Below are positions 34,776-38,156 of a stretch of 64,000 bases of DNA, one piece after another. A program made the position numbers and the translations under genes. Positions within the stretch are counted from its first letter, which is position 1, and every line of letters starts with the position of its first letter. The stretch is from assembly GCF_988242995.1 (NCBI RefSeq), contig NZ_OZ547043.1; one strand, given 5' to 3'. The notes beneath the pieces are model-generated. The model did no database searches. It was not told the DNA's origin and saw only the letters and a program-made list of their open reading frames with translations.

Positions 34776-35915
34776 TTACCAGTTATGAATGTCGCTGGCT
34801 GTATCCGTCATGTAACGGACACCGCTAATAGTTGGCAGCAACTGATTGATCAGACGGTTCCAGCGGGAAACCGGGGCGGTGGTGACATACACCACGTCAT
34901 AAGGTTGCAGGCGGAATTCTGTCGCCATCACCAGCGACGTGGCATCGGACATATCCAGCTGGTAGATATTGGCAATCTTGCCGTTACGCCCGCCCTCGCC
35001 TTTCAGCGGACGAATGACAAAGATGCCGCTGGCGTTGGAGGTGGTCATGTCGATGCCTTCAGCATTGCCCAGGGCTTCGGTCAGGGTCATGCCGCTAAAG
35101 TCCATTTTCAGGGTGCTCTGTTTCTTCACTTCACCCATCACAAATACTTTCAGATCATCATTACGTGGCACGTAGAGAATATCGCCGGGGTAAAGCAGGC
35201 GATTCTGGTTGAGGTCGCCGTTTTGCATCAGCGCCTGCAAAGAAATGCGTTCTTCACGACCATTGTGTGTTAACACCACGTTGCGCCAGTCAGCGGTGTC
35301 GGTCAGGCCACCTGCGGCGTTGATGGCGTCGAGAATAGTCAGTGGCACGTTGGTGATCGCCTGTTGACCGGATTTATTCACCTGACCGGAGATATAGGCC
35401 TTTTGTGAGCGGAAGGCGGCGATATTAACGTCCACCTGCGGGTCAGCGATGTACGTCGCTAAGCGCCCGGTAATATCACTGCGGATTTCAGCGAGCGTTT
35501 TCCCGACTACGTGAACCTTGCCGATATACGGGTAGAACATAGTGCCGTCAGGCTGTACCCAGTTGCCGGTGTCGCTGGAGCTGCGGTACTGACCAGCTGG
35601 CGTGGTGAGTTCCGGGTGATCCCAGACGGTGACATTAAGAACGTCGCCCGGCCCGACGCGATACTGGTAATTCGCGATCTCACTTTCCAGCGTCATATTG
35701 GGGCGCGCTACATTCGGGCGTGGGCGTAATTGGTCAATCAGGCGCGGGGTCAACGGATAAACATTCACCATTTTGTCGAGATCGAAATCAGCGTCCTGCT
35801 GTTTGATGACGTCTTTGCCCATCGTCGACATATTGCTGCCCGGAAGTACTGTGCAACCGCTTATCAAGGTTACTGACACCAATAATGGCATCAATTTCAT
35901 TTTGGATTTCATCAT
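34776..35915 (-). CDS. wza: Outer-membrane polysaccharide export lipoprotein
   Basis: 379 aa; [21 protein letters not shown] lipoprotein signal with lipobox LISGC. Confidence 0.92.
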
Positions 35916-36093
35916 TGTTTATTTATCACTTTGGCAGAGTAATTATCCTGTGCACTATTAATAGCAATGTCGCCATGCACATTTACCTTGCAGTTAATTG
36001 AATAAAAATTTAACTGGCATCAGTCCTAAAAAAATTGATTTCATCCGCAGGCTATTGACAGAATAATTCAGACTGGTCTTTCAGGCATCCAGA

Positions 36094-36132
36094 CACGCTA
36101 CCGCCCCTGGCTTTTTAGCTACCAATACACTG
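36094..36132 (-). promoter_or_regulatory. JUMPstart element with ops site in the colanic acid operon leader
   Basis: Minus-strand reading is cagtgtattggtagctaaaaagccaggggcGGCGGTAGCGTG; near-identical to the O-antigen JUMPstart at 11554-11592. Confidence 0.8.
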
Positions 36133-36572
36133 ATTTAGCTTAATTTTTCAAACCCTCTCTGCATACAATCGTTGATGAGAAAGGGTTATTGCGGAAATTA
36201 ACTTCCGAATATAAGGTGACATTATGGTAATTGAATATTGGCTCTCCAATAATGCAGGAGGAAGTGTTACAGCTAACGGAATAGCAGGCAAGGTAACAAT
36301 TCGGCAATTGGCTATTTTTAAGAATTATATTAAGTGTCATTCAATATGGTTTTTAGGAGTTTCTTTAGGTTGACAATATTTAATATTGCGTCTCCACATG
36401 CGATATTTCTTAAATATGTTTTATTATTACCACTTTTAATTCAGGGATAATGTGAGGTTATTACCCTCAAATAATATGAGATAAATAGTGCTGCAACATT
36501 GCATTTTTGCCCCGATTTATCCATGATCGAATTGTGACATTTGTCATACAACGAATAGGTTTTGTACTTACT

Positions 36573-38156
36573 ATGGAATGGATTGCCGATCCGTCTATCT
36601 GGGCCGGGTTAATCACGCTGATTGTGATCGAACTGGTCCTCGGCATTGATAACCTGGTCTTTATTGCCATCCTCGCCGAAAAACTACCGCCGAAGCAGCG
36701 CGACCGCGCACGGGTTACCGGGCTGTTGCTGGCGATGTTAATGCGCCTGTTACTGCTGGCGTCAATCTCCTGGCTGGTCACCCTGACGCAACCGCTGTTC
36801 AGCTTCCGCTCGTTTACCTTTAGCGCCCGCGACTTAATCATGCTGTTTGGTGGTTTCTTCCTGTTGTTCAAAGCCACGATGGAGCTGAACGAACGGCTGG
36901 AAGGGAAAGACAGCAATAATCCCACACAACGCAAAGGTGCGAAGTTCTGGGGGGTGGTGACACAAATTGTGGTACTGGACGCCATCTTCTCTCTCGACTC
37001 AGTGATTACCGCCGTCGGGATGGTCGACCATTTACTGGTCATGATGGCCGCCGTGGTTATCGCTATCAGCCTGATGTTGATGGCCAGCAAGCCGTTAACG
37101 CAATTTGTTAACAGTCACCCGACCATCGTTATTCTCTGCTTAAGCTTCCTGTTGATGATTGGCTTTAGCCTGGTGGCAGAAGGTTTCGGCTTCGTCATTC
37201 CGAAAGGCTACCTGTACGCTGCTATTGGTTTCTCGGTGATGATCGAGGCGCTCAATCAGTTGGCTATCTTTAACCGGCGACGTTTTCTTTCCGCTAACCA
37301 GACGCTGCGCCAGCGGACTACCGAAGCGGTAATGCGCCTGCTTAGCGGGCAAAAAGAAGATGCGGAACTGGACGCCGAAACCGCGTCCATGCTGGTGGAT
37401 CATGGTAACCAGCAGATCTTTAATCCGCAGGAACGGCGGATGATTGAGCGGGTACTTAATCTTAACCAGCGTACCGTCAGCAGCATTATGACGTCGCGCC
37501 ACGATATTGAGCATATCGATCTCAACGCGCCGGAAGAAGAAATCCGCCAGTTACTGGAGCGAAACCAGCATACGCGGCTGGTGGTTACCGACGGTGATGA
37601 CGCAGAAGATTTGCTCGGTGTTGTTCACGTTATCGACCTGCTACAACAGTCACTGCGCGGCGAACCGCTCAACCTGCGGGTGTTGATTCGCCAGCCGCTG
37701 GTGTTCCCGGAAACCTTGCCGTTGTTACCTGCCCTGGAGCAGTTCCGTAATGCCCGCACACACTTTGCTTTTGTGGTGGATGAGTTTGGCTCGGTGGAAG
37801 GGATTGTGACATTAAGTGACGTCACTGAAACCATTGCCGGTAACTTACCGAACGAAGTGGAAGAGATCGACGCCCGCCATGATATTCAGAAGAATGCGGA
37901 CGGTTCCTGGACGGCGAATGGTCATATGCCGCTGGAAGATCTGGTGCAATATGTGCCGTTGCCGCTGGATGAAAAACGTGAATATCACACCATTGCCGGG
38001 CTATTGATGGAATATTTGCAACGTATTCCAAAACCTGGCGAAGAAGTTCAGGTGGGGGATTATTTGCTTAAAACGTTGCAGGTGGAAAGCCATCGCGTGC
38101 AGAAGGTGCAGATTATTCCGCTGCGTAAGGATGGCGAGATGGAGTACGAGGTGTGA
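36573..38156 (+). CDS. yegH: TerC-family integral membrane protein with CBS/CorC domains
   Basis: Conserved start [39 protein letters not shown] at the internal Met (ORF track begins at 36507), giving 527 aa. Confidence 0.85.

Follow-up and report, generated by a model that had tools for sequence, protein, structure and literature searches.

Which sequences between wza and the divergent gene yegH does the Rcs system use to control the colanic-acid operon, and is the RcsAB-box-like site that a preliminary description placed there one of them? In E. coli and related bacteria, colanic acid is the main envelope-stress output under Rcs control; the Rcs phosphorelay is classically read out with cps-lac fusions. 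The RcsAB box consensus, TaAGaatatTCctA, was reportedly described by Wehland and Bernhard in 2000 for enterobacterial exopolysaccharide promoters, including that of E. coli wza. The cps operon is activated by RcsA-RcsB via an RcsAB box upstream of wza (PMC2478693, PMC5829831). The wza–yegH region is thus an already well-studied cps control region, and its general biology is known. None of the papers covered by our literature search placed the wza box or its +1, and a full-text search with the box sequences themselves gave nothing relevant. The transcription start site of wza is entered as NA in a study of RfaH and H-NS (PMC9765446).

We analysed a window of 64,000 nucleotides, i.e., the whole stretch of DNA, and focused on the region upstream of wza. 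A 901-nt query around the site was matched in 4838 of 5426 complete E. coli genomes, the best match being O157:H7 (99.9%). These matches are annotated with wza and yegH; some records add a small hypothetical protein. The wza–yegH region of K-12 MG1655 is 99% identical to the one studied here, and all the elements discussed below are identical in it. RefSeq places the start of yegH at the ATG at 36573 (K-12 and O157), hence the intergenic region spans 657 bp. The gap of about 590 bp given previously must be enlarged accordingly; it ended at 36506, just before the TTG at 36507 that starts the longest ORF. The other traits attributed to the spacer were found as described: yegH is on the plus strand, divergent from wza, and the spacer is AT-rich, with a GC content of 34.9% vs 50.4% in the window and values as low as 28.5% in segments of 200 nt. 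The locus is delimited as follows:

34776..35915, minus strand: wza coding sequence, first gene of the colanic-acid (cps) operon; 379-aa ORF, annotated wza in O157 and K-12.
35916..36572, no strand: wza–yegH intergenic region, 657 bp, AT-rich.

Two observations concern the yegH side of the spacer. Strain 14EC017 (NZ_CP024134.1) has an IS1A inserted at approximately 36490-36500 of the window, adjoining yegH and upstream of every conserved block of the cps promoter. A conserved CRP-like palindrome (TGTGACATTTGTCATA, 36533-36548, plus strand) precedes the annotated ATG of yegH (36573) by only about 25-40 nt. This is too near the ATG for a standard activating position, so that the palindrome could be an operator or a part of the yegH 5' UTR.

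The general picture drawn before, i.e., an AT-rich cps promoter and leader with a JUMPstart and Rcs control, is correct and belongs to the textbook. The JUMPstart is readily recognised: it matches Rfam RF01707 with 57.3 bits (gathering score 35, E = 2.8e-12) and includes an exact ops. The leader contains the following features:

36094..36132, minus strand: JUMPstart, full-length RF01707 match, 90% conserved in 60 sequences.
36094..36105, minus strand: ops (GGCGGTAGCGTG), the RfaH loading site; exact, in the leader on the wza strand, 190 nt upstream of wza.
36005..36031, minus strand: leader block E (TTTTTAGGACTGATGCCAGTTAAATTT), between ops and the wza ATG, near-invariant across genera.
36176-36206, minus strand: sigmaE-like GGAAGTT-N17-..TCTCA in the leader, with 8-25% identity outside Escherichia.

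RfaH is detected by ChIP at the wza ops (190 nt upstream of the gene) in CFT073 delta-hns delta-stpA, and the AT-rich cps region of CFT073 is bound and silenced by H-NS (PMC9765446). Block E contains a further TAGGA / TCCTAAAA; we looked for RNA-hairpin covariation in the variation of this block and saw none. RegulonDB lists two promoters for the operon, sigma70 and sigmaE, as cited in PMC9764084, and the GGAAGTT...TCTCA at 36206-36176 is probably the sigmaE promoter in question. We did not retain this sigmaE-like site or the likewise promoter-like TTGGAG-N17-CATAAT (36249-36221) of E. coli: both are unconserved across genera (8-46% identity). The “pwza” fragment of the LsrR paper starts inside the JUMPstart and says nothing about the start site.

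The flagged site, taagaattatattaag, is located at 36319..36334, i.e., 2 nt away from the coordinates initially given for it (36321-36336). It had been called a weak match, and it is one: it agrees with TaAGaatatTCctA at 10 of 14 positions and at four of the five core positions. The most conserved positions of the RcsAB box are T1, A3, G4, T10 and C11 (PMC4325325). The 14-mer at 36319-36332 misses one of them, which reads as C11 to A on the plus strand or G4 to T on the minus strand. The RcsB half-sites have been defined in PMC7913699 and PMC4325325, and RcsB binding was lost in all the cases tested when the central base of a half-site was substituted (PMC7913699). The site does not fit the RcsB-box pattern TN(G/A)GAN4TC(T/C)NA, and no site anywhere in the region matches TaAGaatatTCctA with three mismatches or fewer. 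Three 14-mers of the region match at 10 of 14 positions or more. The chance expectation, obtained by simulating the AT-rich region with a first-order Markov model, is 1.4 +/- 1.3 such sites, and 18% of the simulations reached three. Since a score of 10/14 and three such sites in the region are unexceptional in the simulations, the consensus match of the flagged site is at chance level.

Conservation gives a different view of the region. We collected 80 Wza loci, one genome per species, of which 59 had ops at the orthologous distance and were aligned with the window (n = 60). The aligned genera include Citrobacter, Salmonella, Enterobacter, Lelliottia, Kosakonia, Atlantibacter, Trabulsiella, Cedecea and Buttiauxella. 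Upstream of the JUMPstart, the 60 sequences show four sharp blocks (A to D), and the spacers between them have a mean identity of 0.26-0.44. The 120 nt stretch from D to the JUMPstart has a mean identity of 0.35. The blocks, and a gene call that overlaps three of them, are:

36399..36413, minus strand: block A (TTAAGAAATATCGCA), mean identity 0.76 (for the 14-mer 36412..36399).
36351..36376, minus strand: block B (TTGTCAACCTAAAGAAACTCCTAAAA), mean identity 0.81.
36316..36335, minus strand: block C (CTTAATATAATTCTTAAAAA), mean identity 0.85.
36255..36293, minus strand: block D (CCTTGCCTGCTATTCCGTTAGCTGTAACACTTCCTCCT at 36256..36293, followed by the predicted +1), mean identity 0.80.
36224-36373, plus strand: RefSeq hypothetical protein WP_162829205.1, 49 aa, in many E. 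coli genomes; overlaps blocks B-D.

We did not retain WP_162829205.1 as a real gene; the call is probably spurious, because the orthologous segment is open in only four of the 59 sequences from other genera.

The TCTTA of block C is 31-32 bp away from the -35 of block D in all 53 sequences scored, blocks B and C are separated by 34-35 bp in 51 of the 53, and the distance from GTCAA to TCCTA inside block B is 16 bp in 53/53. Between D and ops there are 172 to 209 bp, depending on the sequence. Spacing is thus rigid upstream and loose downstream, as expected of DNA-level operators followed by a core promoter in block D and then by a transcribed leader. Relative to the predicted start in block D, and taking the 14-mers, the centres of the blocks are at about -69.5 (C), -104.5 (B) and -149.5 (A). 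On K-12 NC_000913.3, where position 35915 of the window is 2137243 and the other positions follow at the same offset, this start is at 2137583 and the 14-mers are at 2137647-60 (C), 2137682-95 (B) and 2137727-40 (A).

Block D is the sole position of the region that is consistently promoter-like. When all 60 aligned sequences were scanned for sigma70 promoters with a simple PWM, it obtained a mean of 10.0 bits and was the top hit in 46 of them. It consists of the following parts:

36291..36286, minus strand: -35 hexamer TTGCCT, followed by a spacer of 17 nt.
36271..36270, minus strand: TG of the extended -10.
36268..36263, minus strand: -10 hexamer AACACT.

The extended -10 of E. coli is TGtAACACT, and the -10 is AACAAT in most genera. 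The spacer is fixed at 17 bp. The TTG of the -35 is found in 60/60 sequences and its last three positions drift, at times towards TTGACA. The -11A and the -7T are both conserved in 59 of the 60 sequences, and G 36255, the predicted +1, in 56. Hence, judging from the sequence, block D is most likely a conserved sigma70-type core promoter (P2) with a predicted +1 at about 36255. Its conservation (CCTTGCCTG, TTAGCTG) goes further than a promoter requires and, given this excess, the block may have another role. An RNA hairpin was considered and rejected: the GCTA...TAGC pairing of E. coli is without covariation.

Block C is the flagged site read on the wza strand: the site forms the core of the 20-bp block, and its 14-mer (36319-36332) is 86% conserved across the alignment. 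The block is a functional element, above chance, because it shows 85% identity over 20 bp vs 26-44% in its flanks. Its invariant part is not a -10 hexamer, it is TCTTAAAA, an RcsB-type half-site with an A-tract, each position of which is conserved in 58-60 of the 60 sequences. Block C thus has one perfect half-site, TCTTA/TAAGA, and a second half, on the left, that is degenerate and AT-rich (TAATA). The TC[C/T]TAAAA motif of block C is also found at the end of block B and of the yjbE box; the end of the rcsA box reads TCCGAAAA. Three of the five occurrences of TCYTAAAA in the 64-kb window fall inside the 657 bp. What holds of the initial RcsAB-box-like site is therefore a conserved element; its likeness to the consensus is at chance level, lacks a core position, and is surpassed by the candidates in blocks A and B.

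Block A has the best strict match to the RcsAB/RcsB box in the region. Its 14-mer (TAAGAAATATCGCA, 36399..36412, minus strand) is the sole one with a complete core: it matches 9 of 14 positions, including 5/5 of the core, as well as A14, with the geometry GGA/AGA-N4-TCG. This sequence is TTAGGAAATATCGCA in most genera and TGAGGATATTCCTA in Atlantibacter, and a few genera have lost it. Of the 60 sequences, 59 have block B. In E. coli its 14-mer (TAAAGAAACTCCTA, 36354..36367, minus strand) matches 10 of 14 positions and 4/5 of the core (G4 to A), and in Atlantibacter, Siccibacter and Kosakonia it is canonical, with a 5/5 core (TGAGGCTAATCCTA, TCAGGTTAATCCTA and TACGGTTAGTCTTA). The right half of block B, TCCTAAAA, and the upstream TGTCAA are nearly invariant. 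The latter (TTGACA on the plus strand, 36370-36375) forms the upstream edge of the block, and is found in 59-60 of the 60 sequences, a higher conservation than in the left half of the adjoining RcsAB-type 14-mer; it may be an extended RcsA contact. As a yegH promoter, the TTGACA of the plus strand was rejected, as it comes without a conserved -10. We regard block B as a candidate operator of the RcsAB-box type. Of the two better candidates, A fits the strict consensus, and B is the most widely conserved and resembles the boxes of rcsA and yjbE. Block C is the least likely of the three to be the published wza box.

What, then, is block C? It resembles a part of the upstream region of rcsA. The top ungapped match of 25 nt between the upstream regions of wza and rcsA pairs block C with TAGTGAATTGCCATTAATATAATTC at 20 of 25 positions, a value that none of 300 simulations reached. 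The match includes an exact run of 12 nt (TTAATATAATTC) with the rcsA “box1” region, which alone has p ~0.02. Block B matches TGTTATCCTAAGGATTATCCGAAAA upstream of rcsA (box TAAGGATTATCCGA) at 18 of 25 positions, and blocks B and C thus give the two best 25-mer matches. PMC11879457, citing Wehland and Bernhard, describes two boxes to which RcsA-RcsB binds, located some 170 bp upstream of the rcsA transcription start, and names box1 as the place “where RcsA/B binds”. The region TAGTGAATTGCCATTAATATAATTC overlaps this box1, and the same paper reports binding of H-NS and of the prophage factor YdaT to the matching region. To obtain the rcsA promoters of other genera we searched with the RcsA protein, but the proteins returned were all near-identical ones from E. 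coli.

Block B also aligns with the yjbE box TGAGGTTAATCCTA, and shares the form of the TGAGGTTAATCCTAAAA found upstream of that gene. In K-12, the retrieved sequence upstream of the RcsA-dependent yjbEFGH operon has TGAGGTTAATCCTAAAA and a second element, TTATCCTAAAA, at its positions 643-660 and 782-795, respectively. The second element is 54 nt before a -10-like hexamer (TATACT), and in wza the TCTTA of block C is at nearly the same distance, 55 nt, from the -10 of block D.

On the strength of these sequence comparisons, we favour the reading in which block C serves as an auxiliary Rcs site, of the “box1” type, rather than as the main RcsAB box, a reading that we consider about as likely to be right as wrong. 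We propose more tentatively that wza, rcsA and perhaps yjbE share a composite operator, made of a full box and a separate, equally conserved “half-box”, TAATAT(T/A)A(A/T)TCTTAAAA. The half-box of wza would be block C, at a fixed 31-32 bp from the -35, and blocks A, B, C and D may form one rigid nucleoprotein module. If this were true, the flagged site would represent a second, so far little-described type of operator.

A competing explanation makes block C the core promoter itself (P1), with a -10 TAATAT/TATAAT at 36332-36324, a start at about 36319 (about 2137647 in K-12) and no -35. The 14-mer of the flagged site, which is at -64 to -77 of the predicted start in block D (36255), would then be at -13 to +1. 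RcsAB would bind block B, at about -41.5, and act as a class II activator; block A would be at about -86. The box likeness of block C would be incidental, and block D would be a conserved 5' UTR element or a downstream operator. The geometry suits this explanation: the centre of block B is 41.5 bp away from 36319, as in classical class II promoters, the near-fixed distance of 34-35 bp between B and C is what a class II activator requires, and RcsAB boxes are described within about 100 bp upstream of EPS promoters. The hexamers speak both ways. E. coli has a perfect TATAAT at 36329-36324, but it is Escherichia-specific: most genera have TATTAA, and -7 is A in 39 of the 60 sequences. The TAATAT at 36332-36327 is conserved (53-60 of the 60 sequences per position), yet in this register -11 is C in six sequences, and the cross-genus PWM score is below 2 bits. 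Moreover, the invariant TCTTAAAA would have to serve as the discriminator and the +1 region, where promoters are normally least constrained, whereas it is the same half-site motif as in block B, yjbE and rcsA. The strict spacing of 31-32 bp between C and D, beside the loose one between D and ops, would also be hard to explain if D were transcribed. We thus find it doubtful that block C is the core promoter.

Block C could also be the site of another protein and be unrelated to RcsAB, e.g., an H-NS nucleation site or the site of another nucleoid protein, of a different RcsB partner or of a different transcription factor. In favour of this, the DNA is AT-rich, H-NS binds and silences the region in CFT073 (PMC9765446), the matching region of rcsA is bound by H-NS and YdaT (PMC11879457), and block C fails the strict definitions of both the RcsAB and the RcsB boxes. 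Yet, TCTTAAAA is the RcsB half-site of block B and of the yjbE box, the end of the rcsA box (TCCGAAAA) is related to it, and the spacing of block C to both B and D is fixed. H-NS sites, furthermore, would usually be without single-base conservation across genera. An unrelated binder is therefore unlikely. That the flagged match is pure chance in AT-rich DNA, and its bases functionless, agrees with the chance-level match to the consensus but is highly improbable in view of the 85% identity over 20 bp in 60 sequences from many genera, with flanks at 26-44%.

Returning to block C as an auxiliary Rcs site, we infer the transcription start, the binders at each site and the mechanism from the observed sequence features, their conservation and spacing, and the similarity to rcsA and yjbE. 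H-NS would silence the AT-rich DNA. Activation would come from phosphorylated RcsB (RcsB~P) and RcsA, bound to an array of three candidate sites (A, B and C) upstream of block D, with block C helping the complex at B (and at A) to reach the RNA polymerase. Transcription would start at block D, with a +1 at about 36255, and produce a leader of about 340 nt. RfaH would load at the JUMPstart/ops of this leader and render the RNA polymerase processive through the 20-kb operon.

If block C were a genuine third Rcs contact, this would refine the account of how RcsA-RcsB activates an H-NS-silenced promoter, and it would explain why 20 bp close to the promoter are more conserved than the textbook box. 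As an Rcs site, block C would refine a well-understood system modestly and would not be a new kind of element.

The elements of this region can be compared with four known systems. The wza leader is a standard member of the long polysaccharide operons controlled by JUMPstart/ops and RfaH, with no notable difference. Blocks A and B fit the family of RcsAB boxes (TaAGaatatTCctA), with which they share the locus, the regulatory system and the general position, whereas block C differs by having one good half-site and missing a core position. The RcsB homodimer box TN(G/A)GAN4TC(T/C)NA, known from flhDC and rprA (PMC7913699, PMC5829831), has a half-site, TC(T/C)TA / TA(G/A)GA, that is found in A, B and C, although none of the three is an exact match. 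Block A shares its N4 geometry, while block B differs by an AGA-N3-TCC arrangement, like the rcsA box, and block C is one half-site. The fourth system is the pair of rcsA boxes: wza and rcsA have in common the AT-rich DNA, the silencing by H-NS and the dependence on RcsA, but the order of the elements relative to the gene is reversed between the two, and their distances to the promoter differ.
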